Source: Eubacteriales bacterium (GTDB lineage: Bacteria; Bacillota; Clostridia; Oscillospirales; CAG-272). From it: a DNA stretch of 64,000 bases. The notes beneath the pieces were generated by a model. It was given only the letters and a program-made list of their open reading frames with translations, was not told the origin of the DNA and searched no databases. Both the position numbers and the translations under genes were made by a program. Shown piece after piece: positions 14,017-37,264 of the stretch (position 1 is the stretch's first letter; the number at the start of each line of letters is the position of its first letter). The DNA lies in the NCBI GenBank assembly GCA_045123255.1, contig JBGVIN010000010.1, positions 3,044-67,043 on the forward strand, in the 5' to 3' direction.

Positions 14017-14107
14017 CATTGGTCTTTTCCAGCGTTGCTGGGTGCGTGCCTGTTCCCCTCATCCACCATAAATGGTTCCCCTCCCATCATAGGGGATGGC
14101 TCATTTC

Positions 14108-14262: not shown

Positions 14263-14265
14263 TTT

Positions 14266-14440: not shown

Positions 14441-14460
14441 TTCACACTTTCCATTTTTAG

Positions 14461-14517
14461 AAAAAAGAAGGCTACCGCCTCCTCTGCCCGAGGGCAGAGA
14501 GCGGTAGCTTCTTTTTA
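14461..14517. terminator. strong bidirectional rho-independent terminator ending the giant-gene transcription unit
   Basis: AAAAAA-GAAGGCTACCGCCTCCTCTGCCC-GAG-GGCAGAGAGCGGTAGCTTC-TTTTT. On the minus strand it begins right after the stop codon of the 66-aa ORF (14515-14517). Confidence 0.85.
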
Positions 14518-14715
14518 TTTGTTGAAATATGGGTTTAGTGATGTTGGCATCGTTGGGAAAGTAACGTTTCCGCTACCAGGGTTTGACGGTGTTACAGAAG
14601 GAAATCCTCCACCTCCCGTACCTCCAGCGGTTTCGTTTTCTCCAAGAGAAACATCCATAATATCCTCTACTTCAACGTTATCTATTTCTATAATAGGTGA
14701 AACATACTTGTTCAT
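14515..14715 (-). CDS. small hypothetical protein (66 aa), acidic N-half and Gly/Pro/Thr-rich C-half, co-oriented 44 nt downstream of the giant gene
   Basis: MNKYVSPIIEIDNVEVEDIMDVSLGENETAGGTGGGGFPSVTPSNPGSGNVTFPTMPTSLNPYFNK. AAGGAG lies 10 nt upstream of the ATG. The stop abuts the terminator. No signal peptide or TM. Confidence 0.5.
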   Translation of the reverse strand: MNKYVSPIIEIDNVEVEDIMDVSLGENETAGGTGGGGFPSVTPSNPGSGNVTFPTMPTSLNPYFNK

Positions 14716-14759
14716 CGGGTATTAACTCCTTTCGTCTCAGGTATTATTTGAAATAGTTT

Positions 14760-17700
14760 TTACTTAGAGAAATAGTTGTATGCTGATTGACCGTACTTCA
14801 TAATCTTTTCAGCAAGAGCAATTTCAGCCGGTTTCTCGTAATAATAAGCAAGGAAACACCAATAAGCAATATTGGAGTGTACAGTTGAAATTACTTCACC
14901 GTTGTACATAAGCTCGCAAGTAACAACCGTGTTCATGTCAGCTGCTGACAATGTGTTAGCCTTAACCTTTGCAATTCCGGTTTCTGCATTATAACTAATA
15001 TCTTCGCTAGCTACGTCGTATGAAATTTTGTATCCAGCAAAGTCAGTATAGGTTATTTTTGCAGTGAGGTTATCCTTGTTAAAGCCCTCTATTTTATCAA
15101 AGTAGCTGAACCAGAATACCAATTCTACCTTATCAGCAAGTACAAGAGAGATGTCATATGCATGCTCATTTCCTTCTTGAGCAAACCATGCTTTACTTAG
15201 GTCAACGCCTTCTGTTGCATATGATTGATATTCGTCAGTATTTCTGTTTGCAGGCTCGTTTGCGTCGTGCTTAAGGTAAACTTGTGCTGCTGCACCATAG
15301 TTAAGCATATCGATCAAAGTTGTCTTAAGCTTTGCATCGTCTGAGTTTTCAAGCCAGTACAATGCATAGTTGCGAATGCTCATCTCGTTTACGTTGCTTA
15401 TTGCTTCGCCTGTGCCGATTCCGTCTTCATCAATTGTGCCTTCAAAGATTTGAACTTGAATATCACAGTTCATTTCCTTAGCTGCAATTGCTTCAACAAC
15501 AATCTTCATTACGCTTCCTTCTTTAATCCATGCGCTTTGTGGAATGTAGATTTCCACAGAATCAGTGCCGCATGCTTCAGTGTGAACCTTAATTGCCTTA
15601 GCGTAGTAAGACTTGTTTGCATCAAGCTTAGACATATCAACGTAGAAGTTCATATCGAGTGAAGCACCTGCTGTTACGGAGATACCCTTCCAGATAGATT
15701 CTTCAGCCGTTTTCTTAACAAGCTCAACAAGTCCGTCACCTGCATCTATTGCTGAATACTCTGCGCTAAGCTTATCTGCTACGTTTGCAGGAATCTTAAC
15801 TGTGTTATTTGTTACGTCAGATGATGTGATTACGTTACCGTAAATTGCGCCTACAACTGTTACGCTTACGCCTGTAGTTGTCTCTTCGCCTGATACTGCA
15901 CCGCCAAGTGTGATTGCATAGCAGTAATCACCGTTTGCGATAACCGCACTGTCCTTATCAACGTTAACAATTGTGCCGTTTGCACGAACTGCGATTACTG
16001 AGAAGCTGTTGCCCTCAACGTCGTTATCGCCTGTTGTACCTGTAAGAACAGACTTTGTGAAGGTGAATGATGAGCCCTCAGAGCCCGGTTTTACGTAAAG
16101 TGCGCTGTAGCCGCTGATTTCAGAATCGTTAGCGTTAAGCTCTGTCTTTACGAATGTGATAATACCGTAGCCTGTAGTGCCTGCATCGATTGATACGTTG
16201 TTCATATTAACAACAGTACCGTTTTCGCTACCGCCAATGGTGAGTGGTTGTGGGTTGCCGTATGCTGTAGTATACTTGTTAGCAATAAGTTTTACACCGT
16301 CAAGTGTAAGCTCTACTGCTTCTCTTGTATCAACACAACGGTTAGCCGCAACTATTGTACCGTTTTCGATTGTAGCGTCTGCGTAAACCTCAAATGCCTT
16401 CTTAGATGTTGAAGTTACTGTATGACCGCCAAGGTCAAGAGTTACGTTCTTTTCAATCTTGATAAGCTCGTCAATTGTTACGTCACCAAGGAGAAGGATT
16501 GTATCGCCGTCCTTAGCGTATGCAAATGCACCTGCAAGTGTCTCGAATGAATATCCTGTGCCGTTAGCATACTTGATGAAAGCAACTGCCTTATCAGCCT
16601 CAACACCGTCGATTATAATCTTACCGCCGTTTGATGAGTTAGATGCGTTATTTGAGTCGTCCTCGATTGTAAAGTTAACGTTTGTTGCTGTGATAACCGC
16701 GTCTGTAGCGCCATTGTCGAGTGCCAATGCTGCGTATTTTTCAGAACCGCTCTTATCATTACATACAAGCTTACCGCCGTTAACTGTTACGTTTGCATTA
16801 GCTGCTGAAACGTTAACTACGTTAAGACCTGTAAGAGTTGAGTTTTCGATTGTAACAATTGCACCCTTTGCTGAGCTTGCAACGTTAACTGTATAGTTAG
16901 CTGCTGTTGCATCTACGTTGTAGATTACTACGTTTGTAGCACCTTGAATAACGTTGATTGCGCGCTCGCCTGAAGCTTCGATTGTTACGTTCTTAATTGT
17001 TACACCGTTTGCACCGCTTACATTAATTGCTCTGCCTGCTGTTGATGTAATTGTTTTGCCGTTACCGTTCAAGGTAATTGCTTTGTTAATTGTAATAATG
17101 CTAGATGTGTTAACGTCTGCAAGAAGCTCTACCGTGTCACCTACACCTGCTGCTGCGATTGCTGCTTCGAGTGTTGCGTAATAGTTGTTGCCAACCTTAG
17201 CTACTGCCTTGAGTGCAGGGATTTCTACAGGAGCTTTGATGATTGTGCCACATACTGAGCACTTAATTCCAGCTTCATAGCCTACGTTTTCATACGTTGG
17301 AGCTACTGGAGGAATTTCAACCTCAGTGTGAGCTACCTTATCAGTTACTGTAGGAACAACAGTGATTGTCATACATACTTTGCAGTACTTACCTTCTGTA
17401 AGACCTGTAGCTGTGCAAGTTGCGTTAACTGCAGGAATTGTTTTTAAGGTGTGAGGAACCATATCAACGTAGTTGTCTACATATGTGTCGCCACATACTG
17501 AGCATGTGTAAGTTGTATAACCCTTTGCTGTGCAAGTTGGATCTGTTACTTCCGCGTTGTAGCTGTGATCAATTACAGGAACTGTTACGGTTTCGCGTGA
17601 GAGTTCCTCGCCGCAAACTGTACACTTAGTTACGTTGTCGTATGAACCTGTAGCTGTGCATGTAGGAGCATTTTCGTTTTCCTTAACTGCTGTGCCGGCT

Positions 17701-20700
17701 GTGTGTCCTGTTGCAGGAACTACTGTTTGTGCTTCGAGAACTTCGCCACAAACTGAGCAGTGTGAGCCTGCTGTCAAGCCTGTTTCTGTGCATGTTGCGT
17801 CCTTAGCTGCGTCAATTACCGGTGTGCAAGCTTCAACAACTACTGTGCCGCTCTTATCAGTTACGTGGTAACCGCTTGGAACGTTTTCTGTTGTTACTGT
17901 GCTACCGTTCTTGAGCGCGGCTGTTGCTACGCTTACTGTAACAGGCCACTCAGTTGAGCCTTCTGTTACGTCGAGGTAAACAGTGCCGTTAATTGAAGCA
18001 TTTTCACCGATTGTCAATGTACCGGAGTTTGCATTCTTGCTTGGGTCTTGGAAGTAGATTGCTCTCTTTGTACCCTTAACTGTGCCGCCGTTAATTGTCA
18101 AGATGTTTTGTGCTTCTGTTCCGTTCAAGAATTGACGGATTGCGCTGTATGTTGAAATGATTTCACCGCCGTTGATTACTGTTTCAGCATATGTACCCTT
18201 ACCGTTTGTGAGGTTGTCGATAGCGTATGCCATATCAGTACCGCCGAGGTGCTTAATTGTACCGCCGTTAACTACAAGCTTACCGCCTACAGTGTTGGAG
18301 ATTACTGTTGAGTAGCCGTTCCAACCACGGTTGTTGTTAGCAACGAGTGTGATTGCGCCGTCACCTGTAACAGTGAATTCACCGTTGTTTGTGAACAAGC
18401 TGAAGCTACCTGTTGAGTTATCAGTACCTGTAATTGTCTTGCCGTTTAGGTCAAGAGTTACTTTGCCTGTAACCTTAATTGTAGAATTGAGTGTGATGTT
18501 TTCAAGGAGAACTACTGTTCCGCCGTTTGCGTTTGCCGCTGCGATAGCTTCCTCGAATGATTCATACTTGTTGTCGCCAACCTGTGCAACGTATTCGCAA
18601 GGAACTACTACGTAGTAGCCGTCAACATTTGCGAACTTATAATCAGCAGGAGCTGTTCCGTAAACCTCGCCTACACATGTAGCAAGTGCCTTAAGTGTTG
18701 CATTAGCATTTGCTCCTGAGAGACAGATACCGTCAACTGAACCACCTGTTACTGTTGTGTTAGCAACGTTTGCGTTAGCATTCGGGCTTTGCATCCATAC
18801 GTAACCGATATCGCCACCGTTAATTGTGAGGTTATTAGTTCCGCCGTTTGCAAATTGACGAATTGCAAAGTATGTTGAATCGATTGTGCCACCGTTTACT
18901 ACCATTGTAGCAATTGTGTTTTTACCGTTGGTGAGGTTATCAAGAGCATATGCCATTGACGTACCGCCAAGGTGCTTGATTGTACCGCCGTTTACTGTTA
19001 CTGTACCTTGGTTGTTAGCAATAACAACTGATGATGCGTTCCAGTTACGTTCGGTTGTTGCTGTAAGTGTAATTTCACCCTCGCCGCCAACTGTGAAGCT
19101 TGCGCCCTTTGTTACGTTGAAGAGGTAGAAGTTACCCTTTACGTTATTATCAGTACCTGTAATTGTCTTACCGTTGAGGTTAAGAGCAACTGTACCGCTT
19201 ACTGTTACTGATGAATCAAGTGCAATATTCTTAAGAAGAACTACTGTTCCGCCTGCGTTTACTGCGTCTTGAAGTGTTTCGTAGTATTCGTTGCCATTCT
19301 TTGCAACTACTGATTTTGTTTCAGTATGAGCTGCATCGTTTGCACAAGTTCTTACTACTGTGCAGTTTTCTGCATCGAAGATCCATTCGCCAAACGCGTG
19401 ACCTGTTGCAGGAATTGTAATTGTGCCTGTTGAAAGTTTTGTGTCACATGCTGAACAGTAAACTACGAGATCGTACTTACCGTCTTCTGTGCATGTTGCA
19501 TCAGTCTTGTTTGCGATTTCTACATCGCCCGGATTGTGAGCAAGCTTATCAACTGTTACTGTTTCGCTTGAAAGCTTAGCGTCACATTCTGTACAGTAAA
19601 CTACTAAGTCGTATGAACCTGTAGCTGTACATGTAGGAGCATTTTCGTTTTCCTTAACTGCTTCGCCAGCTGTGTGAGCAATTACAGGAATTGTTTCTCG
19701 CTCAACTACTGTTGCATCACAGTGTGCACACTTAGAACCGTCTGTAAGACCTGTCTCTGTGCATGTTGCTTCCTTGCCAAGTACTGTATCTGTTGTGTTG
19801 TGTACACAGTTACCGTCTTTGTCAAAGCGAGCGGATTTTGTAAAGCCGTATCTGATTACGCCAACCTTATCACCTGAAACGAATGTATTTCCGTTGAAGA
19901 TGCTAAAGTTAAGAAGTGCTTCTTGTGCATCAGCCTTTTCTTGTGAACCAAAGTCAGCTACTGTGTAATTGTGTACCCAGAATGCTGCACTGTCACCACT
20001 AAGTGTTGAGTTCTCAATTGTTACGTTATTCTTATCGTAACCGCTATTGAATACGCGAACTGCAACGTATGTTGATTCAAGTGTTGAATCCTTAACGTTA
20101 AGTGTTACCTCACCCCAGTTGTTGAGGTGTGCAACGAATGCCATATCAGAACCGCCAAGGTTCTTAACTGTTGCATTTGCGATGTTAAGAATACCGCCTG
20201 CTGTTACGTTGAATACGTTTGTTGAGCTACCCCAACCCATATTCGTGCCTACATGCTCGAGTGTGATTGTACCGCCCATAACTGTGAGAGTACCTCTTAC
20301 GTCAAATACGTTTCTGTTGCCACTGATTTCATCAGTTACAGCAGAGATTGTACAGCCGTTTAAGTCCAGTGTTACTGACTTCTTAACTACGATAGTGTTG
20401 TCACCGTCAATTGTGATACTACCAAGAAGAACGATTGTGTCACCTGATTCTGCTGCTGCAAATGCTTCAGCAAGAGTATAGAAGTACTCGCTATCAATCT
20501 TAGCCAAGTATCTCTTTGTGTTGTTTACGTTATTGAATTGTGCAACATCGTTGCTATCCTTTGTTGCCTCGCCGATTGCTATTGCATGATCGCCATTGAA
20601 GGTTGTGTTAGAAATTACTACTTCATTTCCTGTTCCCTCGAGGCGTACGCACTGACCATAGTAACCGTTTTGAGGAGCATTGTAAAGTGATGTAAGAGTT

Positions 20701-23700
20701 GCGCCATTAATAACGATTTCGTGGTCGTCGCCCCAAACGTTAATTACGTTAGCACCTTCGTATGTACCGCCGTTAATTGTAAGAATATTAGCGCTACCAC
20801 CTGTAACGTTAACTGCATATGCCCAGTCTGAACCACTTGTTGGATCAAACTCAACTGAGCAGTCATTGAGTGTAAGGTTAACACCTGTAAGATTTGAATC
20901 AATGCTGATGCCGCGAACGTCAGATGTGTATGTGCTGAACGCTGTGCTTACCATATTAACGTCATTGAGTGTAACCTCAACGTCGCCCGTTGTAATACGG
21001 AATACACGATTTGCGCTTGAAGTAACATTATAACCGTTACCGTTGATTGTAATTGACTTATCAATCATAATAACGCTGTTAGCTTCAATGTTGCCAAGAA
21101 TTTCAATTGTATCGCCTGCATTAGCTGCTGCGATTGCTGCTGCGAGTGTTTCGAACTTAGTGTTGCCAATTTGTGCCACCGCTACAAGTGCTGGAATTGT
21201 TTCAGGAGCAACGATGATTTCGCCGCAAACTGAGCACTTAACGCCTGCCTTTGAGCCTGCTGCATCAACTGTTGGAGCAACTGCAGGAATTTCTTCCTCA
21301 GTGTGAGCAACCATATCAACGTAGCTGTCTACGTATGTATCACCGCAAACAGTACATGTATGAGTTGTATAGCCCTTTGCTGTGCAAGTTGGATCTGTTA
21401 CTTCCGCGTTGTAGCTGTGACCCTTAACAGCAATCGGTTCAGGAAGAGTAATGATCACCATACAGTCTTCGCAGTATGTGCCCGGCTTAACGCCTGCTGT
21501 TGTGCAGGTTGCATCTACGCCAGCAGTATATTTGAGATTAATCTCTTCAACTGCGAACGTGCCGTTAGCCTTTGCGTGTGAGTGGTAGCCCTCTTGGCAG
21601 AACTTGTCTGCAACAGGAACTGAGAACGTACCGCCGTTAACTGCAAACGCAAATGCGCTTGAGTCGTCTGCAAGCAATCTACCGTTGATAGTGCCGTTTG
21701 AGATATTCAACTCTGCGTTGTTGTTGTAGCTATTTGGATTTTGTACCCAAACAGATGTGTTGCCACCTGTTACAGTGCCGCCTGTGATATTAACAATGTT
21801 TTTAGCTGTTGTGTTGTTTGCAAATTGACGAATACCGATATATGCAGGGCAGCTTACAACGCCACCGCTGATATTGAGTACTGTATCGCCAAGTGTTGAG
21901 TTGTTATCGATTGCATCGTACATTGAGCCGCTTACGTTTGTAAGGTTTTCAATTGTACCGCCTTCGATATTGAGTGTGCCGCCTTGGTTAACAATTGTGT
22001 AAACACCTACACCGTAACCAAATGATGCACCTGTGTATTTAATTGAAAGCTTACCGTCGCCTACACTGTCCTTAATTGTAAGTGTGCCGTTGTTTCTGAT
22101 CATTGCTACGTTTGCTACACTTGTTTCGTAAACAACTGTTGCACCCTTAAGATCAATAACCGCTTCTTCACCCTTACCAATAACAACTGTGTTGAGAAGG
22201 ACAACTGTTTCACCGTTAGCTGCCTCGATTGCTGCTTCGAGTGTTGTGTAGTACTTGTTGCCAACCTTAGCTTGAACAGGCTTACCTGTTGAGTAAGCAC
22301 CGCCAACCTGTGGCTCGCTTGCATTGTTGCTTGAAACAACGATGCCCTCAGATGCTACTTCACCAATTACGTAACCCCAGTTTGTAGGAGCTGTAACCAC
22401 GGTGTTAGCAACTGTGTTGTTGCTGATTTCGCTACCGCCAAGAGCAAGACCTGCAATACCGCCTGCGCCCTTAGAGGTTGCCTTAATTGTTGCATTATTT
22501 ACTGAGCATCCTGTGATAACTGCATTTGAATAGCTGTAACCTGTGATACCACCAACGAAGCTATAGCCTGTGATGTTTGCACCGTCAACTACGCAGTTTT
22601 CAATTGTGCCCATATCGCGATAGCTGTAACCAACGATAGCACCAACGCCGTATGCGTCTGGAGCATCGATTGTTACGTTCTTAACCGTTACGTTAGAAAC
22701 GTTGAGCTTACCGCCCTTATTGTTTGCAAAGCCAACGAGTGCGCCAACGTTATGGCCTTCGCCCTCAGCTTTTACTGTGATGTTTTCAAGAACGAGGTTC
22801 TTAATTGTAACCGCACCGTATGTGTAGCCAAAGAGACCGCCACAGAGGTAGCCGTCGCTATCTGCCTTAGGAGCGAGATTGAGGTTCTTGATAGCAAAGC
22901 CTTGACCGTTAAACTTACCGTCAAATGTTGCATTGATACCGTCGCCGATACCTCTTTCCCATGTTGCGCCGTTCATATCAATGTCAGCTGTGAGAACGAA
23001 ATATTCAGTTGTGTATGAACCGTCGTTTACACGCTTAGCAAAGATATTCAATTCTTCAACTGAACCAATCTTATATGGATCAGCTTCTGTACCTGAACCG
23101 CTAAGACCCTTAACTTCATCATAAGCAGCTTGTGCAGCTTCGCTAAAGGTGTTGTTTGTAAATACAGACTTAGTTATTGTGCCATCGTTAAATACAAGGT
23201 TGTTGATTGTATTTTCTGCGATAGTTGCTGTTGCGCCGTTATAAACCTTGAATCTGTTGTCGCCAAAGCTGTTGCCTGTAACTGTGCTTGAAGCGCTTGA
23301 TGCTACGTTAACCTTACCTGATACGATAGTGTTGTTTGCGAACACTTCCTTACCACGGAGGATGATTGCATAGCCGTCAACGTCAAATGTGTTACCTGTA
23401 ACAACAAGGTTGTCTCTTGCTGATTCATAGTAAATAGCGTCGCCTGTTGTATCAAACGTACAGCCTGTGATTGTAATTGTGTTTGCGCTTGCTTGTGGGA
23501 ATACACCTATTCCACCAACAAACGTTACATTTTCAATTGAACCGGAGTAAAGACCGATACCACCGTTCTTACCTGACTCGTTTACGATTGTAAGATCCTT
23601 AACTGTGAGGTTTCTTGCATCGTCGAACAAGTGGTCGCCGTTTCCTGCGGACTCGATGCTCTTAACAGTTAATGTATGACCGTTACCGTCAATTGTCAAG

Positions 23701-26700
23701 TCGTCAATTACGAGAGTGATAAGCTGGTTGCTACCGATTGGTTTTTCGGTAATCATTGTCCACTTGTCAACTACTACGTCTGAAAGAAGCTCAACTGTTC
23801 CGTTAGGAGCCGCTGAAATAATAGCCTCTTGGAGTGAGAAGTAGTAATTACCGTTTGCAGTTGCAACAGGAAGTGCGAATCCGCCTTGTGCTGTTACGTT
23901 TGCAGGATTTGCTGTGATGAAGTTCTTGCCGGCTTCAAGTGTGTTGCCTGTTGCTTCAACAACTACGTTAGCAATGTTAGAGTAAGACTTAATGTCTACT
24001 TGACCGTTTACTACTGTGTTGTTTGTGAAGGTTACAGACTCGCTTGCGCCGAGAAGTACCTTTGAATTTTCAAATTCACAGTTATCTACTACAATCGCCT
24101 TAGCATCTTGGTCATTTCTGTTGTCAGAAACGCCACGGCCGAAGTTCTTGAATGTAGAATTTGTAATTGTTACTGTTACGTTAGAAAGTGCTGTGCCTGC
24201 ACCCTCACCGAAGATAATGCCGTAGCCGTCACCCTTGCCGATGAATGTACAGTTATCAAACGTGCCGCCAAGCTTTGCAGAAATAATGCGTTGTACGCCT
24301 GTTGCTTCGCTTACGTCGATTGTAAGATCCTTAACAGTTGCAACCTCTTCAAATCTGAATACTGTGTTCCAGTTGTTGTCGATAATTGCGCCTGTGAACT
24401 TAATTGTCTTACCGTTACCGTCGATTGTTACAGGAACTGTGAACTTAGCACCTGTGGATCTGCAATCCCACTTGTCGTCGATTGTTACATCGTTAAGGAT
24501 TTCAATTACTGCGCCGTTTGTTGCTGCTTGGAATGCTTCTTGGAGTGAAGCAAACTTCTTGTCGCCAACTTGTGCAACGAAGGTTACAGGAGCGAGAACT
24601 GTTTCGCCGTCAACAACAACTGTGATGTCGTTGTTAGCGTCTGTGTAGTTGCCCTTCTTGTTGTTCCAGAGTGAGTTGCCTGAAACGTTACCTGCACCAA
24701 AGCCTGTTGCAGTTGTGTTGTTAACTGTTACGTTAGCACCTGCGCAGTAGCTTGTATCGATTTCGATAGCCGCCTTGCCGTCAACTGCCTTTGATGAAAC
24801 GAATGTAGTATCTGTAAACGTTACGTCAACAGCGTATGTTGAACCTTCGTTATAAACGAGAACAGATCTACCTGCCGCATTGAACGTACAACCGTTGAAC
24901 GCAACTTCCTTAGCTGCGTATGTCCAAACGTTGTAGTTGTTTTCGTCGGTTTGGATAAACGTACAGTTATTAAATGTTTCGCTTGTGCCATAGAGGAATA
25001 CTTGACCGTTGAACGTACAGTTGTTATAAACCATATCGCCTGCATCTTGTAATCCCTTATAGCCGGAAGCCATATCATATGTAAATGTGATATTGTTAAA
25101 TGTTACACTCGATTTAATGCTGTATGCTGTAATTCCCACAAATTCAACGCCGTCAACCGCGCCTGTGATTGTGATGTCCTTACCGCTTACAGTAAGCTTG
25201 TATTCGCCAGCAACAAGAATCTTAACCTCGTCGCCGTTTTGAGCTGCCTTGAATGCATCTTCAAGTGAGAAGTATGACTTGCTGCCTATGGTTGCAACCG
25301 GCTTATTAACTGTAGCATTTACAGTTGCTGTATCTGCCTTAGTATATGTTGCTGTTGCATCTGTCAAGTGGATACCGCCGTCGCGGAGGTCACCTGTGAT
25401 TGTAACTACTGAAGTATCTTCAATAGACAATGTTTGACCTGCTTCAATACGGATACCCGCCTTGGTAATACCTGAAAGTGTGATTTCGGACGCGCCACTA
25501 ATTGTATAGTTACCGCGGAACAATACACGACCGTCAAGGTTTGTTACGTTAATCTTTGAATTGTCGATTACGATATCGTTGCCTGTTGATGCATTTACGC
25601 AAATGATATCAAGATCAAGTGCGGTTTCATTGTTAACAACGATTTCTGAACCGTTTACAAGATTGAGGTCAGAGTTGTTACCGTCAAGACCGATTAAGTA
25701 TGTACCTGATACGCCTGTAGCAACCAACTTAACGCCGTCAAATGTAAGTGTTTGGTCAGCAAACATCCAGAACACTGCTGTGCTTGGTTTTACACTTGGG
25801 TCAACTACGATTGTACCGTTTTGGAATGTTGTTGTGCCAAAGTAGAGGTCGTCCTCTGTGAGTGTAAGTGTATTGCCGTTTAAGTCAATTACACTTGCCT
25901 TTGTAATAGCTCTTTGGCTCTTAAGAGCAGGAGTTGCGTCTGCAAGGAGAACGATTGTGTCGCCCTCATTAGCTGCCGCGAATGCTGCTTCAAGTGAAAT
26001 GTAGTATGTGTTGCCAACCTTAGCAACAACATCATATGGAGCTTCAACTACAACACCGCCAACTATAAGAGTTGAGTTAACAGCGTATGAGTTGCCTGTA
26101 ATAGTACCTGAGCTGATAAGTGCGTTGTAGTCCTCGCCGTATGCGCCCTTAACTATTACGTTTTCAGCTACTACATTTGAAATAATGTCGTTTTCGTTTG
26201 TGTTACCTACGATAGCAGCTGCGCCGTAGTGATTTTCTGCTATGATAGTAACGTTCTTTACAGAACAGTTTGTAACGGTAGCAGAGCTATCGCTTGTGCC
26301 AAGGAAGCCACCGATACCACCAACTGCCCAATAAAGTGCCTTAATTGAGCTTTCTGCATTATTGATGCCATCTACGTGACAGTTATTGATTACTGCGCCA
26401 TTGTATGCATAACCCATGATAGCGCCTGCACGTGCACCTATAACGATAATTTCACCAGTTACGTTTACACTATCAATTGTAGTGTGCATATTGCCACAAC
26501 CAACAACTGCAGCCGCACCAGCGTGCTTTTGTGCATAGTCAGCTACAACCGCACCGTCGATTGTGAAGTTCTTGATTGTTGTATGATAGCCGGTGTTATC
26601 GCCACGGTTTCCTGTGCTTGTGTAACCGAAGAGACCGTTTTGATCATCTGCACACCAGAGGTTAGAAATAGTATGTTTTTGACCGTCGAATGTACCTGTG

Positions 26701-29700
26701 AACGGATGAGCTGAAGTACCGATTGATGTCCAGTCTTCCTGTTCAAGGTCGATGTCAGCTGTAAGAACAACGTAAACGTTTACATATGTGCCATCGTTTA
26801 CACGCTTAGCAAAGAAGAACAAGTCTTCTGCTGTGCTAATCTCGTAAGGATTTGTAGCTGTGCCTTCGCCGCTAAGTGTCTTCGTAACAACGAGACCGTT
26901 TTTGTCCATTGTAATCTTAGCGTTACCACCCTTAATTTCAACTGTACCTGTAAAGCCGCTCATATCAGCGCCGATTACAGTTACAGGCTCAAAGCCAAGA
27001 CCTGTTACGTCAATAACGATCTTACCGTTACCAATGATTGAAGGAGCTGTAAGTGAGCTGTTGATATCAAGCTCGATTGTGCCGTTGTTCTTGAGTTGTG
27101 CACTATATGTCAAGCTTGATCCCTTAAGAATCAATGTGCCTGCGTTATAGTTGCCCTCGTCATTACCGTTTGTTAATGTTGTAGAAAGAAGCTTTGTATT
27201 GATAAGAGTGAATACAGAGTCAGCGTCGTTGGTCATAAATGTGCCAACCTTAACGTCACTGTTCTCGAATGTAAATTCAGTCTTAGAAAGAGCCTCGTAG
27301 AATGTGATTCTTGAAGCATCAACAACAGAGTTAACAAAATAGAATGTGTATTCTCCGCCGTAGTTGCCTGGCTTGTTGCCAAATGAATTGTTAGAACCGA
27401 TTACAACGTATGCATTTTCAACTGTGAAATATGAATCGCAGTTCCAGCCCTTGCTCTCCTGAGCAACAAGACCGTGTGTAAAGAATGCAACGTCGCCGTC
27501 TGTCAAGTTTTCACGCGCTTCAAGAGCGTCAGAAATGCTACCGTAGATAGTTACCTTATCACCGTAGCCAAGACCGTAACGCGCCTTGTCAGTGATTGTG
27601 AGTGAAGCGCCCTCTTCAACTGACCATTCCATATTAGCAGTTGTGCCATAGTAATCAGTAAGAGTACCGTAGTCGTAAATCATACCAACGGTATTGTCAC
27701 CGCGGAAGATAACCTTACCCGCAACGAATACATGACCGTTGATTATTGAATTCTTAACGATAGCACCGTCAAGAAGGTCGATGCTTTCGCCCTCGAATGA
27801 AGCAAGCTTCAATGTGCTTTCGCCTGAAACTTTGATTATGCCGTTGTTTGTAAGCTTAAAGCTACCTGCATCGAGGTTAAAGCCATTGATTGCAATAGTT
27901 TCGCCCTCTGCTACAGTTACGTCAGCAAGAAGAACAACTGTGTCTTTCGCCTTTGCAGCTGCAATAGCTTCAGCAAGTGTAAGGTACTTAACGCCATTGA
28001 TTGAAGCAACACCGTAGTTGCCGTAAATACCCTTAGCGTCTAAGCCTGTATCGTTAAGAGCTACAACAACCTTGCCTGTTGGGGCTGTTGGCATTGTGCC
28101 GTTTGTATCGTACTCGCTAGTTCCGATTGCCATCCACAAGCCGTCTGTGTTTGCAGGAGTCATTGTGTTTGTGCCTTTGAAAATAACGTTGTAATTTTCA
28201 ACCTGTGCCTTACGAACAACTACAGGAATGAATGCGCTAATTTCGCAATCCTTAATTGTGATTGTGTTGTTAGCAATTTCACCGTTCAAGCGGATACCGT
28301 ATTTGTCGTTAGCTGCTGTAATTTTTACGTTTTCAACAGTTGCACCAACAACGGTACCAAGTGAAATACCGCGCTTACCTTCAATCACAGTGTTTGTAAC
28401 TGTGATATTGTAGCCACCTTGGTTTTGCAAGAGTGAAGCTACACCTGTAGCAATACAGTCGCCAATTACAACCTTTGTAGGTTGATGTGTACCAATCGCT
28501 GTAGTGCTATAATCTGTATCTTTAAATGAACAACTAATAATAGTAAGAATACAGTTACTATTCTTATCCATTGAATCGATAAAGTATTCCGGAGAGATTT
28601 CGCTTGTTGCAACGAAGTTAACGTTCTTAATTGTAATGCTCTCGCCGATACCGATTTCGAATTCACCTGTGAAGTTGTTGTTCTTACCGTCGATAGTGAA
28701 TGCTACACCAGATGCCTTTTCGATAGTTACAAGCTCTTCTGTAACGTCATCGAGAAGTACGATGGTTTCACCATTCTCAACTGCGTCGATTGCAGCTTGG
28801 AGAGTGTCATACTTCACGCCGTTAATTGCTGCTGCATAGAATGGAGCAGGAATTTCGGAGAGGTCAGCCGCGATATCGTATACGTCGATTTCAACAGTAT
28901 TTTCCGCGGTTGAGCCAAATGTGTTATTGCCTGCTGCTTGAATAGCTACAACGAGTTCTCTCAACGCGTTGGTTGTTTGATTTACGTTGCTGCCTGAAGC
29001 AGGAGCATACTTTGTATCTGCCCAAATCTTGATAGCCGCACGGTTAGATTTTCCACCAAGACCCCAAGATTTGAAGTTGTTTTCAGTTACAGTAATGCTG
29101 TTTGCAGCTGTAACCGCCTTTCCGTCACCACAACCTTGGATTACAAAAGCGTGGCTGGAAACGTCAACAAATGTATTGTCATTAAGAGTTAAATTATAAG
29201 CTGTTGCGTTAGGAACGATAAACATACCGTAGCCATTTGTTGCTGTACCGATTGAACCGTCAGCAGTGTTGCCGTCGATAGTGATATTCATTCCCTCACG
29301 ATATGTCTTAACAGTAAGTTGAGCAACTGTGTTGTCTGCAATAACAACTTTCGCGTCGTTAGAGCATACAGTAAGTGTACCGTTTACTGTCAAACCTGAA
29401 ACTGTGAATGTGCTTTCGCTTCTGTCAGCTTGGTCAATGTGGCTTGCATGATAACCGATTGAAAGGCTACCGTTAATTACCACACCGTCAGCTGCTGTAA
29501 TTGTGATGTTCTTTTTGCCGTTAAGCTCAATGAACATATTAGCTTCAGCTGTGAAGCCGTCTGTGATAACGAGTGTTTCGCCATCCTTGAGCGCAACAAG
29601 TGCTTCGCTAAGTGTAGCGTACTTAACGTCGCCGATTTGAGCAGCAGGAATTGCTACTGTTACACCGTTAGCTTTAAAGCCGTTCTTGTCAAGGTTAACA

Positions 29701-35700: not shown

Positions 35701-35822
35701 TCGACTACAGAGTCGGCAGGAGCAATTTCGTCAGTTGTGTTTGCAAGTGCTTGCAATGGTACAAATGCGAGCAACATGAACACAATGAGAAATAGACCTA
35801 AGAAACGTTTTGTCTTGTTCAT
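14760..35822 (-). CDS. giant secreted modular surface protein (7,020 aa): about 20 beta-helix-type cassettes, 2 GLUG-like modules, 3 Cys-repeat clusters
   Basis: Uninterrupted 21,063-nt ORF with an AAAGGA RBS. Signal peptide MNKTKRFLGLFLIVFMLLAFVPLQALA. At least 20 recurrences of the cassette-start motif VA.(I/V)G...Y.(T/S)L..A(I/F).AA..GDT(I/V).LL.D(V/I). Dozens of GGT(F/I/Y) turn motifs. Two modules G.GT...PY.I....(D/E)L..FAKRVNDG.Y...(V/F)VLTADID are followed by GLFGY/GALVGFA/VGAIVGYS/VGGITGYS/AGGIAGLA repeats. Three clusters of 4-Cys units (TC(T/E)..G......C..C(G/D)). Confidence 0.9.
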   Translation of the reverse strand: MNKTKRFLGLFLIVFMLLAFVPLQALANTTDEIAPADSVVETTDAGEKSTGNVAKVGNTEYATLANAFANANGNTVTLLNDIKVTEVLTVVEGTSATLDLNGYDAVLEGEAYIFVKSNGPSSVGMLTVKDTSENADGRIVGVICVNGTLNLESGTITSAGYGVSGIPATVVLQPDSYANYPELNVTGGTIEFTGDLDELGDLASFATAIFASGTNGRGSDMNFSEDATVKSTGSCVLQNVKISDHGDVTVTNGTFKCGEGFEIFNIDTTGGAEVAVSGGTFSSAIPEKYCADGFELVENADGTYGVEKAVSYVAEINGTGYATIDEAIAAWTNNATLTLLADVTLSDVVTLKSTEHHILNLGTYTMTAASGKNAFVIQACGNGSAERTAITINADAKNPGGINAGSKCVVYYKYADGGISTEDRPIIKINGGVFNGTTSTWGTAGIYTIGTAARKCATVDIAGGTFNCSINGSGKSKLIISGGTFNYSVGSQGDSTALRLISGGTFKTFGFMTADSNNTKFWFGTSMANSNVGVYVDDNGYIVVGGTVITEAGEKFEASSANYSGANSLLQYSSAKTNGLYYTSVEEAFADNNKASGEVTVYVDELDMSGISYKGTIVVPKDGRLKITNAPAGLKVENEAGDKLELDAEGNVFKPVAKIGEVGYATLSDALAAAADGATIKLNWAKGDAPIAMNGAVYGKTVTITGTATVDWGEGFLFVGRGGEGDGEVIFDGANLTSASNQASTGIHVSGREKDTTNKYDGTLTIKNSTIELDYLINKGTITLDNSTLTVKNGFAVGGRPASETESGVDATATMTLDNGSKLVVNNHNGMGLGYEAIGVMTVNSGSTFETTQSFLVTAKGTLNVNGGSVNVAGTLTNNGTINVSGESTLNIETLSGSSIDLCEGAIVKNSTVGGAAYIAGNVTFRGKNTFDMLTDYGDYYSQVTPSKWTVESGASLTLTKYDRYGLGYGDKVTVFGNIEDALNARETLTDSDIAVNMYGGLVGMTNSAASNAQNSFTAENAYLIFGIEGDKSFGNKAGSYYGNYKFTFDNCVVTANAFKFYEDKGTSIVVLEDTDLLVNGVFMTNDASSEFKFTNCVIVSKAASNGSDDKNQNAGTMVLVGTDLTYNAAFTNIGTITLDLNSSITAPSILGSGKIVIDATGFTEAVTVINGDMSGFTGTIEVIKGEAVYTITDTGLEITKAVASVNGTYYASLQAAINAAVNGDVITLVADIEQEDGVIITDKNITIDLNDKTFTVTVGASTNNRNIKINGSSVVTIKNGTMVAKGDYSSGAYGTVRTEGTANVTLTDLKLYNYRGNGLNIKACTGTTVTISNTEIYSQYGGGIEAAGGTIELTNVTVEQKGMYTAPYNSMAVSVNGGGKVTVNSGTYTTECLTAEEANNQGTSHGSWCVGVLNSGGTLIINGGTFANGNFGDDSLATYARGLVMGDTGAVIEINGGTFNALKGVIDVQNNLGDASKNPTFKLAGGTYSADPTDNGWFGNLITLAAGYEVAENDDNTYSVVKSPVAQIGDVKYTSLADAFAAAQAGDTIVLLADVTVDGTAQIPAGVTIKSNGKTINGSIRMLGDLTLDGPLTITGGLWVGKSGETLTATLAGDKLTASYFMFQRGTYTIDADIDAVYGYLSFEGTFEVNSTIHTTGANGEVLYINGNVTLNDGAVLDSDNSVFLNNANAVLTIKPGAKVDSNLNITNAGAKLVIDATGAQAGEYAGITGTVTNSVNGTIEAKNGSFIVNIVGGKIVLTQAVAQIGGVKYATLSEALEAAKVMTGDVTIEIFDKATLNSAISGSFDSITFVGKDTDAEIYLDVQGYITATGKNVAFEDLKLSKSEGGYVTNAGFMNLAFGVYDVVSVNYTNCTFLNGACASSGEVTFTGCTFYRSHDRYGLWVYGAEETTVDGCTFADIRGIKFFSEGKLQIGDLIVKNTNFSAADNKPAIVLTSGKSVTLENNTYSSKGVFELDLDGVPNGTAVTSDVPPTCVNDNGACGVLVDGKIYTTVAQAAEVAVSGSNVTLLFNSAETVEFGIGVNLDKNGFKANGVTVAIPAAQIGDVKYATLSEALVALKDGETLVITDGFTAEANMFIELNGKKNITITAADGVVINGSLSIGYHASHIDQADRSESTFTVSGLTVNGTLTVCSNDAKVVIADNTVAQLTVKTYREGMNITIDGNTADGSIGTATNGYGMFIVPNATAYNLTLNDNTFVDVSSHAFVIQGCGDGKAVTAANSITVTENNFKSWGLGGKSNRAAIKIWADTKYAPASGSNVNQTTNALRELVVAIQAAGNNTFGSTAENTVEIDVYDIAADLSEIPAPFYAAAINGVKYDTLQAAIDAVENGETIVLLDDVTEELVTIEKASGVAFTIDGKNNNFTGEFEIGIGESITIKNVNFVATSEISPEYFIDSMDKNSNCILTIISCSFKDTDYSTTAIGTHQPTKVVIGDCIATGVASLLQNQGGYNITVTNTVIEGKRGISLGTVVGATVENVKITAANDKYGIRLNGEIANNTITIKDCEISAFIPVVVRKAQVENYNVIFKGTNTMTPANTDGLWMAIGTSEYDTNGTMPTAPTGKVVVALNDTGLDAKGIYGNYGVASINGVKYLTLAEAIAAAKAKDTVVLLADVTVAEGETIAINGFNLDAGSFKLTNNGIIKVSGESTLKLASFEGESIDLLDGAIVKNSIINGHVFVAGKVIFRGDNTVGMIYDYGTLTDYYGTTANMEWSVEEGASLTITDKARYGLGYGDKVTIYGSISDALEARENLTDGDVAFFTHGLVAQESKGWNCDSYFTVENAYVVIGSNNSFGNKPGNYGGEYTFYFVNSVVDASRITFYEALSKTEFTFENSDVKVGTFMTNDADSVFTLINTKLLSTTLTNGNDEGNYNAGTLILKGSSLTYSAQLKNNGTIELDINSSLTAPSIIGNGKIVIDVTGLGFEPVTVIGADMSGFTGTVEIKGGNAKITMDKNGLVVTKTLSGEGTATNPYEISTAEDLFFFAKRVNDGTYVNVYVVLTADIDLEQEDWTSIGTSAHPFTGTFDGQKHTISNLWCADDQNGLFGYTSTGNRGDNTGYHTTIKNFTIDGAVVADYAQKHAGAAAVVGCGNMHTTIDSVNVTGEIIVIGARAGAIMGYAYNGAVINNCHVDGINNAESSIKALYWAVGGIGGFLGTSDSSATVTNCSVKNVTIIAENHYGAAAIVGNTNENDIISNVVAENVIVKGAYGEDYNALISSGTITGNSYAVNSTLIVGGVVVEAPYDVVAKVGNTYYISLEAAFAAANEGDTIVLLADATPALKSQRAITKASVIDLNGNTLTLTEDDLYFGTTTFQNGTIVVDPSVKPSTAVFWMFADQTLTFDGVKLVATGVSGTYLIGLDGNNSDLNLVNGSEIVVNNETALDLDIICVNASTGNDIVIDNSKINVTNLDGRVLFRGNYTISGASEITLSGITKAGIRIEAGQTLSIEDTSVVTITGDLRDGGIHLTDATATYTKADTATVNATVNKPVATIGSKSYFSLEDAFKAAQNGDEVKILVAGEYKLTVSGKDITITGAVDGVEFVGITAYSIKSSVTFNNITFTYDMASGYKGLQDAGDMVYNNCTFNGQVFLYGTSETFNNCTFIQTDENNYNVWTYAAKEVAFNGCTFNAAGRSVLVYNEGSTYAVDVTFTDTTFVSSKAVDGKAAIEIDTSYCAGANVTVNNTTATGFGAGNVSGNSLWNNKKGNYTDANNDITVVVDGETVLAPVTFVAQVGDKKFASLQEAFQAATNGAVIEILNDVTIDDKWDCRSTGAKFTVPVTIDGNGKTIKFTGAIIDNNWNTVFRFEEVATVKDLTIDVSEATGVQRIISAKLGGTFDNCTFIGKGDGYGIIFGEGAGTALSNVTVTITNSTFKNFGRGVSDNRNDQDAKAIVVDNCEFENSKVLLGASESVTFTNNTVVNGQVDIKSYSNIANVVVEATGNTLEAGKNFITANPANVTAQGGFALPVATANGNYYFSLQEAIISAAPNGTVELLSDVVVDKWTMITEKPIGSNQLITLVIDDLTIDGNGHTLTVKSIESAGNGDHLFDDARNLTVKDLTIVNESGKNGGIGLYSGSIENVTFVGGIGVFPQASANTITITGCTFDTTGDAIYYESARDNLVVTGNTFDVDGYAIILRGKEVFANNTIVSGKVNVASSASSTVTGNSFGDNRFKVYNGATATIAENTINNLVFNDGTITKSVFTNNTFSEAAQAAYDEVKGLSGSGTEADPYKIGSVEELNIFAKRVNDGSYTTEYFVLTADIDMNGATWERGIGDGINATFDGKFNGQGFAIKNLNLAPKADSDGYLCGGLFGYTYGAVTIKNLVLENITVKAEGEGHNVGALVGFANNKGGKLNVSNVTVKNVTIDAPDAYGVGAIVGYSYRDMGTIENCVVDGANITGYSFVGGITGYSYSNAVITGCSVNNATIKATSKGAGGIAGLALGGSEISNNTVANTVVTAPTNWGYVIGEVASEGIVVSSNNASEPQVGGAYSTGKPVQAKVGNKYYTTLEAAIEAANGETVVLLNTVVIGKGEEAVIDLKGATVVYETSVANVAMIRNNGTLTIKDSVGDGKLSIKYTGASFGYGVGVYTIVNQGGTLNIEGGTIENLTNVSGSMYDAIDNNSTLGDTVLNISGGVVSCPAYIGIRQFANNTTAKNIVNITGGTVTGGNTSVWVQNPNSYNNNAELNISNGTINGRLLADDSSAFAFAVNGGTFSVPVADKFCQEGYHSHAKANGTFAVEEINLKYTAGVDATCTTAGVKPGTYCEDCMVIITLPEPIAVKGHSYNAEVTDPTCTAKGYTTHTCTVCGDTYVDSYVDMVAHTEEEIPAVAPTVDAAGSKAGVKCSVCGEIIVAPETIPALVAVAQIGNTKFETLAAAIAAANAGDTIEILGNIEANSVIMIDKSITINGNGYNVTSSANRVFRITTGDVEVTLNDVNMVSTAFSTYTSDVRGISIDSNLTGVNLTLNDCSVEFDPTSGSDWAYAVNVTGGSANILTINGGTYEGANVINVWGDDHEIVINGATLTSLYNAPQNGYYGQCVRLEGTGNEVVISNTTFNGDHAIAIGEATKDSNDVAQFNNVNNTKRYLAKIDSEYFYTLAEAFAAAESGDTIVLLGSITIDGDNTIVVKKSVTLDLNGCTISAVTDEISGNRNVFDVRGTLTVMGGTITLEHVGTNMGWGSSTNVFNVTAGGILNIANATVKNLGGSDMAFVAHLNNWGEVTLNVKDSTLESTYVAVRVFNSGYDKNNVTIENSTLSGDSAAFWVHNYTVADFGSQEKADAQEALLNFSIFNGNTFVSGDKVGVIRYGFTKSARFDKDGNCVHNTTDTVLGKEATCTETGLTDGSKCAHCDATVVERETIPVIAHTAGEAVKENENAPTCTATGSYDLVVYCTECDAKLSSETVTVDKLAHNPGDVEIANKTDATCTEDGKYDLVVYCSACDTKLSTGTITIPATGHAFGEWIFDAENCTVVRTCANDAAHTETKSVVAKNGNEYYETLQDAVNAGGTVVLLKNIALDSSVTVSGTVALNLNGKTITGTDNNVKGNFYLFNVTKGASFTVGGEGEITLTATTERNWNASSVVIANNQGTVTVNGGTIKHLGGTSMAYALDNLTNGKNTIATMVVNGGTIDSTYFAIRQFANGGTNNLTINGGDIGYVWMQSPNANANVANTTVTGGSVDGICLSGANANATLKALATCVGEVYGTAPADYKFANVDGYYVVVPCEYVAQVGDNKYESFEEAIAAANANGGTVVLLENITLNSTIKVTGKVTLDLNGKTITGTDNSTGSFSLFTNNGEFTVTGDGAITLVANNNRGWNGYSTVISNTVGGKLVVNGGTIKHLGGTDMAYAIDNLTNGKGTYAETVINGGEIISTYSAIRQFLNGTEAQNILTINGGTVKGTKRAIYFQDPSKNANSGTLTIGENASINGTVYLDVTEGSTEWPVTVSVATAALKNGSTVTTENVPSGYHVTDKSGTVVVEACTPVIDAAKDATCTETGLTAGSHCSVCGEVLEAQTVVPATGHTAGTAVKENENAPTCTATGSYDNVTKCTVCGEELSRETVTVPVIDHSYNAEVTDPTCTAKGYTTYTCSVCGDTYVDNYVDMVPHTLKTIPAVNATCTATGLTEGKYCKVCMTITVVPTVTDKVAHTEVEIPPVAPTYENVGYEAGIKCSVCGTIIKAPVEIPALKAVAKVGNNYYATLEAAIAAAGVGDTVELLADVNTSSIITINKAITLNGNGKTITSTAGRAINVSGANGVTIKNVTIEASGERAINVIQGATNVVIYNVDATAANYTVNVASSAKGAIVTIENSTLTGLNVVNVSAANANVTVNGGKLVCNDKSGSEKYAALALDNGATDAVITATNVNFTIEDDSNNASNSSNGGKIIIDGVEADKAVAFIKYANGTGYSFETLAGAFAYAKDGDTILLLGDVTIDELIKIEKNVTLDLGGHTVTSTSKKAFEVYADATIENGTIVAANRCVDTREAVELTLDGVKLIANKYTTAYGNPQPLTIGGSENGTVVNMNNVSIDAGTTGYGIITFVKTELNANDSEISGYSALYVKPGSEGSSFTFTKSVLTGTTGDNDVEGNSFSVIAVRANGTIVNVDKDSAVIANGDYCYAITLGGAVSGEETTTGVSVTVVGAIYGNVITSSDVTNNTVKIPANVADKLSAEYSAIDAGDGLVELVKKTAEESIWKGISVTAGASLDMNFYVDMSKLDANKSYYAKAIKVHTEACGTDSVEIYIPQSAWIKEGSVMKIVVEAIAAKEMNCDIQVQIFEGTIDEDGIGTGEAISNVNEMSIRNYALYWLENSDDAKLKTTLIDMLNYGAAAQVYLKHDANEPANRNTDEYQSYATEGVDLSKAWFAQEGNEHAYDISLVLADKVELVFWFSYFDKIEGFNKDNLTAKITYTDFAGYKISYDVASEDISYNAETGIAKVKANTLSAADMNTVVTCELMYNGEVISTVHSNIAYWCFLAYYYEKPAEIALAEKIMKYGQSAYNYFSK
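17521..17568 (-). repeat. 48-nt exact intragenic direct repeat, copy 2
   Basis: Identical to 21373-21420. The spacing of 3,852 nt equals 1,284 codons, so it is in frame. Confidence 0.95.
21373..21420 (-). repeat. 48-nt exact intragenic direct repeat, copy 1
   Basis: ccctttgctgtgcaagttggatctgttacttccgcgttgtagctgtga is identical to 17521-17568. Encodes HSYNAEVTDPTCTAKG. Flanking about 118 nt are also similar. Confidence 0.95.
26871..27854 (-). repeat. intragenic ~1-kb duplication, copy 2
   Basis: See copy 1. The offset was measured from the shared antisense peptide EFLTIAPS in track ORFs 33034-33321 and 27739-28017 (33091 versus 27748). Confidence 0.8.
32214..33197 (-). repeat. intragenic ~1-kb duplication, copy 1 (aa 876-1203 of the giant protein)
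   Basis: LTNNGTINVSGESTLNIETLSGSSIDLCEGAIVKNSTVGG...GFTGTIEVIKGEAVYTITDTGLEITKAV aligns collinearly with LTNNGIIKVSGESTLKLASFEGESIDLLDGAIVKNSIING...GFTGTVEIKGGNAKITMDKNGLVVTKTL, encoded 5,343 nt downstream. Confidence 0.85.
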
Positions 35823-35896
35823 TTTTACTGTCCTTTCAAAACAAAAATTAGCGTGATGAAATAATTTTCCTTAAAGGAATACCACACACTGACCAA

Positions 35897-35925
35897 ATTA
35901 TACACCAAAATTCGCCAAAAGTCAA
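35897..35925 (-). promoter_or_regulatory. near-consensus sigma-A promoter of the giant gene
   Basis: Minus strand TTGACT (35920-35925) - 17 nt - TATAAT (35897-35902), about 75 nt upstream of the start codon. Confidence 0.6.
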
Positions 35926-37222: not shown

Positions 37223-37223
37223 C

Positions 37224-37255: not shown

Positions 37256-37264
37256 TGTTTTTCA

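Follow-up and report, generated by a model that had tools for sequence, protein, structure and literature searches.

A 7,020-residue beta-helix protein from a gut Clostridia bacterium and its widespread C-terminal module, a candidate for surface retention

Introduction

In the guts of humans and ruminants, Oscillospiraceae and related uncultured Clostridia are abundant members, yet little is known of how adhesins and enzymes are displayed on their surface, and no anchor can be recognised in many of the proteins they secrete. The 64,000-nucleotide stretch of Eubacteriales contig JBGVIN010000010.1 analysed here (the window; positions 3,044 to 67,043 of the contig, assembly GCA_045123255.1) carries a 21-kb gene that raises this question for a protein of 7,020 amino acids, the giant protein. 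An earlier note on this DNA, read from its letters, described the gene and left both the export of its product and its retention at the cell unexplained. How does such a protein leave the cytoplasm, and what could hold it on the cell that makes it?

The single 7,020-codon open reading frame (ORF) with its Sec signal peptide stands as first described, and no stop interrupts the frame (Table 1). Export needs no special account, because that signal peptide is an ordinary one. As to retention, the first reading overlooked a conserved module of ~310 amino acids that is always C-terminal and is common to thousands of secreted Clostridia proteins (the CT module). We regard it as somewhat probable that the giant protein is a Sec-exported, fibrillar adhesin-type surface protein which its CT module retains non-covalently on the producer.

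Absence of classical anchors

The wall-attachment domains searched for are those of Table 1 in Desvaux et al. 2018 (PMC5817068), each of which has a Pfam model. SLH, CWB1, CWB2, LysM, WxL, SH3b types, SPOR, PGB and ChW have no match at E<=0.01 in the whole protein and none at E<=1 in the single cassettes of its body. Dockerin_1 (PF00404) has no match in the giant protein, and the CT module itself contains no known wall-binding Pfam domain. LPXTG is absent from the whole sequence, the last 400 amino acids carry no sorting-like motif and the last 320 no W-x-L motif. The signal peptide is the sole strongly hydrophobic segment; it is followed by no more than a marginal stretch within a linker (aa 4865-4883), and there is no C-terminal transmembrane segment. 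Pfam scans combined with motif and hydrophobicity searches thus agree with the earlier judgement, made by eye, that LPXTG, SLH, cell-wall-binding repeats and a C-terminal transmembrane segment are missing. The check for a standard anchor domain near the C-terminus, which had been asked for at the same time, was also run and Pfam returned none.

The C-terminal module and its family

The AlphaFold2 (AF2) model of the CT module has a predicted local distance difference test score (pLDDT) of 90 and features a beta-sandwich followed by a helical hairpin, twice over. The two halves are homologous to each other (HHalign 99.3%, E 7e-21). Residues invariant in the family, LNYGAAAQ and a terminal YG..A..YF, map to the helical hairpins. 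Profile searches of Pfam, NCBIfam and the PDB sequences gave no relative of the module. The copy of the giant protein shows the traits of its family: twin units, LNYGAAAQ, a place at the extreme C-terminus (the protein ends ...YNYFSK) and a Sec signal on the carrier.

An exhaustive profile search puts the family at 11,960 cluster representatives (E <= 1e-3), of which 3,049 remain at E <= 1e-30. The module is single-copy and ends on the very last residue in 178 of 232 members, being no more than 4 residues from the end in 224 of the 232 (~97%). In species-representative genomes there are 333 matches, all from uncultured gut Clostridia (Oscillospiraceae, Faecousia, Lawsonibacter, Flemingiibacterium and others), and one metagenome-assembled genome (MAG) has at least 9 paralogous loci among the best 80 of these 333. 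A Sec signal peptide is found at the start of nearly every complete CT gene from genomes (48 of 51).

What precedes the module is highly variable. In the first database search the N-terminal parts were unrelated (LRR_5, SH3_3, cohesin, Big_2), while the match always ran to the C-terminus. Among 55 full-length representatives, LRR_5 accounts for 24 cargos, transglutaminase-like domains for 9 and cohesin for 3; amylase with the carbohydrate-binding module (CBM) CBM26, subtilase, nucleases, phosphatases, pectate lyase and GLUG are also found. None of the 55 carries SLH, LPXTG, CWB, LysM, WxL, ChW or dockerin. The module also occurs on its own behind a signal peptide, as in the stand-alone proteins P0010 and L050.

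When a module occurs once per protein, strictly at the C-terminus, and recurs on many paralogous secreted proteins whose cargos are unrelated, it bears the signature of a localisation module. Gene context is most telling in L077. Three proteins (L077, P0014 and P0018) are built of signal peptide, cohesin and CT module, and in a rumen Clostridiales MAG (L077) the 470-amino-acid gene of this type (9335-10744) directly follows that of a 2,021-amino-acid LRR_5/Flg_new protein ending in a type I dockerin (2992-9054). In other genomes the CT module is attached to this LRR_5 cargo itself. Homologues of the body of the giant protein in other lineages end in SLH, dockerin (P0049, P0125) or Por_Secre_tail. 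There is also a precedent in CBM37 of Ruminococcus albus, a C-terminal module specific to its lineage, which takes the place of dockerins and fixes enzymes to the cell surface (PMC4081043). From the localisation signature, the L077 slot, the SLH and dockerin ends of body homologues and the CBM37 precedent, the CT module is read as a surface-retention module, which its position, cargos and gene context make probable. That it constitutes a previously unrecognised, widespread class of anchoring or docking domains of gut Clostridia/Oscillospirales, a counterpart of SLH, CWB2, WxL and CBM37, is a broader proposition on which we are evenly divided.

The L077 pair is of interest in its own right as a minimal cohesin-dockerin display system that serves a BspA-type protein, not an enzyme.

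Another observation concerns a predicted multi-pass membrane protein of ~190 amino acids encoded directly 3' of CT genes in four loci (L004:8696-9271, L038:11116-11673, L043:11100-11720 and L045:11113-11679). It has no Pfam match and is absent from the window; three of the four adjoining CT genes carry beta-helix opener-type cargos related to the giant protein. A role as membrane partner of CT proteins is possible. This gene and the PqqD/S24-like gene set described below, found in ~8 loci, are minority neighbours among the 78 CT loci compared.

Architecture of the giant protein

The product of the giant gene has a computed mass of 732.7 kDa and an acidic isoelectric point (pI 4.45), with T, G, A, V and N as abundant residues. 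Its body is made of capped right-handed beta-helix cassettes of several subtypes. A hidden Markov model (HMM) of the cassette opener (VA.IG...Y.TL..A..AA..GDT..LL.D) detects 20 strong copies (E <= 3e-9) and at most 3 weak ones, in line with the at least 20 cassettes of shared opener counted before. Cassettes measure ~220-260 amino acids and the subtypes are 25-54% identical to one another in an all-versus-all comparison. The body also includes a duplicated, solenoid-like module of ~340 amino acids, which differs from the standard cassettes and matches nothing in a Pfam scan.

Homologues were searched with three shorter queries rather than with the whole protein. Pfam and NCBIfam scans of 2,400-amino-acid pieces were nearly blind, and scans of individual cassettes, as recommended in the earlier note, proved more informative. 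They give Beta_helix (PF13229) at aa 1763-2004 (2.8e-10, 40.5 bits against a cut-off of 25.9) and Pectate_lyase_5 (PF20585) at aa 3749-3985 (25.1 bits against 24.3), with three more cassettes just under the latter cut-off; GLUG also exceeds its cut-off and zinc-ribbon families stay sub-threshold. Most cassettes have no Pfam match in these scans. The AF2 model of aa 4230-4881, which comprises the second GLUG-like module and the next cassette, has pLDDT >90 over its first 530 residues; it shows beta structure throughout, apart from a capping helix. Apart from the match of the GLUG-like part given below, the structures to which Foldseek relates this model all have a right-handed parallel beta-helix; they are Ag43, pertactin, AlgE, PL6 lyases, phage tailspikes and the serine-rich repeat protein (SRRP) of Lactobacillus reuteri. 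On the Pfam matches and on the AF2/Foldseek comparison of the one cassette modelled, the cassettes are predicted to be right-handed parallel beta-helices of the pectin-lyase fold, which gives substance to the beta-helix-like pattern initially seen in the letters.

The giant protein shares with the binding region of L. reuteri SRRP (PDB 5nxk, 5ny0) and with PF20585 an extracellular, non-catalytic right-handed parallel beta-helix, and SRRP structures occur among its Foldseek matches, with low template modelling scores (TM-scores). In contrast to SRRP, it has ~20 such modules in series instead of one, and lacks serine-rich repeats, LPXTG and a SecA2/Y2 context.

Two GLUG-like modules are present where the first reading placed them, one passing the GLUG cut-off and the other remaining below it (Table 1); they are 36% identical to each other. 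The second has 76 database homologues, many with PF07581 or PF05342, and its top Foldseek match is the putative IgA1 protease BACOVA_03286 of Bacteroides ovatus (PDB 3n6z; E 1.9e-6, target TM-score 0.57, 21% identity). The fold is thus common to the two modules and to the GLUG/Peptidase_M26_N-type solenoids of this protein, the streptococcal IgA1 protease and the Zmp family. Unlike these proteases, the giant protein has no M26 catalytic domain, nor does any other peptidase family match across its 7,020 amino acids in the Pfam/NCBIfam scans.

The three cysteine clusters also lie where they had been reported, while their repeating unit, taken for a 4-Cys motif, is in fact Cys3-His: C-T-x-x-G-x5-7-C-x2-C-x12-16-H. 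Nine complete and two degenerate units are distributed over the three clusters. The ligand pattern indicates that these mini-domains probably bind zinc, a property offered at this strength because AF2 gives no fold for cluster 1 (pLDDT 30-45) and the Pfam matches of the units to Zn_ribbon_3, A24_N_bact and C1_1 are all sub-threshold.

Proposed retention at the surface and competing explanations

The arrangement envisaged is the following. The producer would be an uncultured, spore-forming gut Clostridia bacterium exporting the giant protein via Sec. After removal of the signal peptide the chain would be a row of ~20 right-handed beta-helix modules, each short and capped and of the 'pectate-lyase-like adhesive' type, in which the two GLUG-type solenoids and the three Cys3-His clusters, probably zinc-binding, would act as spacers. 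Taking ~0.48 nm as the rise of each beta-helix rung, the extended chain might be of the order of 100 nm. The CT module would bind a component of the cell envelope, either protein or glycan, and so hold the giant protein on its producer non-covalently, while the beta-helix array would project outward as the ligand- or glycan-binding part of what may be an adhesin.

Several observations weigh against this arrangement. The CT module is acidic (median pI 4.5 over 232 members) while classical wall binders are usually basic, and the electrostatic test for such a binder is therefore negative; the acidic pI points to a protein or a neutral glycan as ligand rather than to teichoic acids. Compared with PDB folds by Foldseek, the CT model resembles just generic tandem Ig/FnIII domains (TM-score ~0.2), from which no function is transferable. 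No conserved partner or receptor gene lies beside the CT genes in the 78 loci, a scan of viral contigs gave no phage-encoded copy by which the module could be linked to the cell wall, and one CT protein also has SH3_3, itself a peptidoglycan binder. Finally, primary scaffoldins join cohesins with a CBM (PMC4081043), so that the combination of cohesin and CT module would also fit a polymer-binding module. The CT module could accordingly be of CBM type and aim its cargo at dietary or host polymers, the giant protein being released or retained by other means. Such a role agrees with the beta-sandwich-based fold, which many CBMs share, with cargos such as pectate lyase, amylase and nuclease, and with a pI that does not suggest binding to teichoic acids. 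However, CBMs are found at varied positions and copy numbers, whereas the CT module is found strictly once per protein and, in ~97% of members, at the extreme C-terminus; it is borne by cargos that are not enzymes (LRR_5 in 24 of 55, cohesin, transglutaminase-like) and by an amylase that already has CBM26, and the pairing of a dockerin protein with a cohesin-CT protein is the layout of an anchoring scaffoldin. Polymer targeting is for these reasons possible though rather unlikely as the explanation, and CBM37 illustrates that polymer-binding and surface roles need not exclude each other. It is unlikely that the module serves instead for protein-protein docking or oligomerisation, bringing its cargo into the S-layer or another surface complex or bundling chains, without binding the wall. 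Acidity is a property of dockerins and cohesins too, the invariant residues LNYGAAAQ and YG..A..YF are located on helical hairpins, and the stand-alone proteins of signal peptide and CT module would suit such a function, but the 78 loci hold no conserved partner gene; besides, docking still implies surface retention and is a variant of the favoured explanation more than a true alternative.

For the body of the protein the competing explanation is a secreted poly-enzyme, whose cassettes would act on plant or host glycans as active polysaccharide lyases, hydrolases or epimerases. GH87, GH55, PL6, AlgE epimerases and tailspike depolymerases figure among the Foldseek matches, and GH106-like and GH-like genes are found nearby in the window. 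Yet the TM-scores against enzyme structures are low (0.1-0.2), the cassettes are short, and a phmmer search of the PDB sequences with both halves of the giant protein finds no relative. Catalytic beta-helix families (PL1/PL6/PL9, GH28, GH55, GH87 and similar) have no Pfam match at E<=1 in any cassette, where only generic Beta_helix/NosD and the 'adhesive' Pectate_lyase_5 are recognised. An enzymatic array is thus quite unlikely.

Non-covalent retention of the giant protein by its CT module has architectural parallels in known systems. Like WxL (PF13731), SLH, CWB2 and CBM37, the CT module is a lineage-restricted C-terminal module present on many paralogous Sec-secreted proteins with unrelated cargos, and it takes the place of dockerin, SLH or LPXTG in corresponding architectures, as non-covalent retention modules do (PMC5817068, PMC4081043). 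It differs from WxL, SLH and CWB2 in having no sequence or HMM similarity to them, no WxL motif, an acidic rather than basic character and a fold of its own; the likeness to CBM37 is functional and architectural only, drawn from the description of that module. Anchoring scaffoldins are single-cohesin partners whose other end carries SLH (Clostridium thermocellum OlpA/OlpB/SdbA) or a sortase signal (Ruminococcus flavefaciens ScaE) (PMC4081043). The three signal peptide-cohesin-CT proteins share their layout, with the CT module at the anchoring end in place of SLH or LPXTG, while the giant protein itself has neither cohesin nor dockerin. If its function is confirmed, the CT module will extend the known class of C-terminal surface-retention modules by a new variant.

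With ~12,000 protein clusters and an anchor-like position and context, the module is a concrete and testable candidate for the missing surface-display mechanism of these bacteria. If the proposal is true, it would explain how thousands of secreted proteins that have no known anchor, including the 733-kDa giant protein and cohesin-bearing scaffold proteins, stay on the cell, and would clarify those cohesin-dockerin systems that have no SLH or sortase anchor. It would also improve the prediction of surface proteomes from these genomes and provide a handle for surface display in these organisms.

Integrity, size and evolution of the giant gene

The source assembly is of metagenome type and the protein is modular, a combination for which a 21-kb ORF might be an artefact, either a chimera or a repeat array collapsed or expanded during assembly. 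The best internal DNA repeat of the gene, however, reaches 84% identity over 155 nt, which short reads can resolve, and the frame extends over 21 kb without any stop. High-scoring segment pairs with homologues at E<1e-10 cover 96% of the residues, and a separate Logan contig is 100% identical over window positions 14405-16715, the 3' 2.3 kb. Syntenic orthologues are present in two other MAGs: that of L003 is visible over >3,665 amino acids in a 10-kb flank, and that of L002 is cut by the contig end. Because the internal repeats are weak, homologues cover most of the protein and the Logan match is perfect, an artefact is extremely unlikely; of the faults named in the earlier note, stops are absent from the assembled frame and a collapse of repeats is unlikely.

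The supposed rarity of such a size in Firmicutes was overstated. CT carriers elsewhere reach 5,792 and 5,076 amino acids, and genes for 10,000-30,000 amino acids have been reported from gut Clostridia and Oscillospiraceae (West-Roberts et al. 2023, bioRxiv 10.1101/2023.11.21.568195); size alone is not exceptional for gut Clostridia. The giant protein resembles those giant repetitive surface proteins in habitat and lineage, in its great length and in being wholly modular with extracellular adhesion-type domains. They are described as made of RCC1, Listeria-Bacteroides repeat, YG-repeat, dockerin and LRR (leucine-rich repeat) modules over 10-30 thousand amino acids, whereas the present one is a 7,020-amino-acid beta-helix array with another C-terminal module. 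We count it as a new member of the giant modular surface proteins, a class already known.

The two MAGs that are syntenic with the window, L002 (Eubacteriales) and L003 (Clostridia, water deer caecum), have in common with it the order giant gene, small ORF, ~180-amino-acid ORF on the opposite strand, DUF1015 and Gly transporter. Neighbouring proteins are 80-93% identical to their orthologues there, while identity falls to 49-51% in the CT module and to 46-62% in the body where it can be aligned. L003 and a further locus, L074, share single cassettes at 63-82% identity in a different order. Sequence divergence and cassette reshuffling thus proceed much more quickly in the giant gene than around it, which is what one expects of a protein exposed at the surface. 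To the giant surface proteins already catalogued from gut bacteria it adds a beta-helix array that evolves fast and shuffles its cassettes.

Expression signals and the small downstream gene

The giant gene is preceded by a ribosome-binding site (RBS) and by a sigma-70-type promoter-like site, both as first annotated. The latter matches the consensus at 11 of 12 positions and is the top-scoring site in 35700-37300 and in the 1.4-kb upstream spacer. A search of this spacer for riboswitches and leader RNAs found nothing, the sub-threshold matches being the terminator of the upstream ABC operon. The strong terminator attributed to the giant gene is a genuine hairpin; what the attribution missed is an ORF of 66 codons with its own RBS lying between the giant stop codon and the hairpin. 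The two genes are therefore considered to form a bicistronic unit closed by this terminator, probably read as a single transcript.

The 66-amino-acid product is conserved directly 3' of the giant gene in L002 and L003 and has 13 homologues of 53-76 amino acids, with no Pfam match. Its N-terminal 20 residues are invariant (MNKYVSPIIEIE.VEVEDIM), its middle is variable and rich in Gly and Pro, and its conserved end is ...YFN(K/V), here ...YFNK. The YF(N/S)K endings common to the small peptide and the giant protein were considered as a meaningful feature and set aside as probably due to chance, the distant loci having no shared ending.

Related peptides (MKKFETPEIEI..F..EDV.TTS) are encoded 3' of more distant CT genes in L017, L033 and L076. 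In ~8 of the 78 CT loci, from different MAG lineages, the CT gene is followed by genes for a 185-324-amino-acid protein, for an 86-amino-acid PqqD-type RRE (recognition element for ribosomally synthesized and post-translationally modified peptides, RiPPs; PF05402, E ~1e-19) and for a weakly matching S24-like peptidase. In L033 and L076 the peptide ORF lies upstream of this set and close to it. A PqqD/S24-like set with a small peptide looks like a RiPP-type cluster, and this proximity suggests that the peptide is RiPP-like. The 66-amino-acid peptide, whose window of 64 kb has no such accessory genes, may be leader-like, a RiPP-type or signalling peptide functionally coupled to the giant protein, an assignment less certain than that of the CT module.

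Table 1. Position of the features discussed. Nucleotide coordinates refer to the window, except those preceded by a locus name.
Feature	Position	Strand	Basis
Giant ORF, 7,020 codons + stop	14760..35822	(-)	no stop within reading frame
Sec signal peptide, aa 1-27, MNKTKRFLGLFLIVFMLLAFVPLQALA followed by N; cleavage motif A-L-A before N; no lipobox	35742..35822	(-)	sequence
Sigma-70-type promoter-like site, TTGACT-17 nt-TATAAT	35897..35925	(-)	consensus match 11/12
RBS GAAAGGA, 8 nt 5' of ATG	35831..35837	(-)	sequence reading
Body, aa 53-6639, predicted capped right-handed beta-helix cassettes, several subtypes	15906..35666	(-)	opener HMM, AF2, Foldseek, Pfam
Duplicated ~340-aa solenoid-like module, aa 863-1201 and 2648-2981	32220-33236 and 26880-27881	(-)	copies 52% identical
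GLUG-like solenoid module 1, aa ~2981-3265	26028..26882	(-)	GLUG HMM 16.6 bits, sub-threshold
GLUG-like solenoid module 2, aa 4238-4517	22272..23111	(-)	GLUG 21.2 bits, cut-off 20.5; AF2 pLDDT >90
Cys3-His cluster 1, aa 4773-4880, 2 complete units + 1 degenerate	21183..21506	(-)	regular expression and sequence reading
Cys3-His cluster 2, aa 5354-5475, 3 complete units	19398..19763	(-)	regular expression and sequence reading
Cys3-His cluster 3, aa 6011-6200, 4 complete units + 1 degenerate	17223..17792	(-)	regular expression and sequence reading
CT module, aa ~6711-7020 (~310 aa), tandem duplication of ~145-aa unit	14763..15692	(-)	homologues, AF2, HHalign
66-aa ORF, own RBS, no signal peptide	14515..14715	(-)	kept directly 3' of giant gene in L002 and L003
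Intrinsic terminator closing the two-gene unit	14456..14516	(-)	hairpin at ~14462-14516, dG (folding free energy) -37.1 kcal/mol, z = -8.0, then U-run
PqqD-type RRE / S24-like gene set	L073:10860-11117, L078:4608-4865, L076:11687-12828, L032:2024-3506, L033:3924-4899, L028:11212-13453		
Bacterial RNase P class A RNA	9998-10361	(-)	235.5 bits, E 2.6e-75

Genomic context

The window is chromosomal and encodes TIM, PGK, BacA, transketolase, SpoIIE and the RNase P RNA. The giant gene pair is flanked on both sides by a composite intergenic repeat in one orientation (13900-14430 and 36540-36700), and a third copy is found at 9480-9583. It is composed of GATGATATRCAAC hairpin units, CCGTAGGGGCGATTCACGAATCGCCC and CTCGGCTACGCTCGGAATGA; none of these matches is expected by chance, and the element is partly kept in L003. 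It may be a repetitive extragenic palindrome (REP)-like or miniature inverted-repeat transposable element (MITE)-like element, or a substrate for recombination.

Two more proteins with a signal peptide, both BspA-type LRR_5 proteins, are encoded in the window at 433-3432 (-) (999 amino acids) and 40137-41849 (-) (570 amino acids). Neither has a CT module, a C-terminal LPXTG-type signal or a Pfam anchor domain. Further along, the region 54378-62754 (-) holds a run of same-strand genes without Pfam match (291, 135, 288, 375, 826 and 224 amino acids) together with a gene for a protein with C-terminal MucBP (56760-58169), and may be another surface or adhesion locus.

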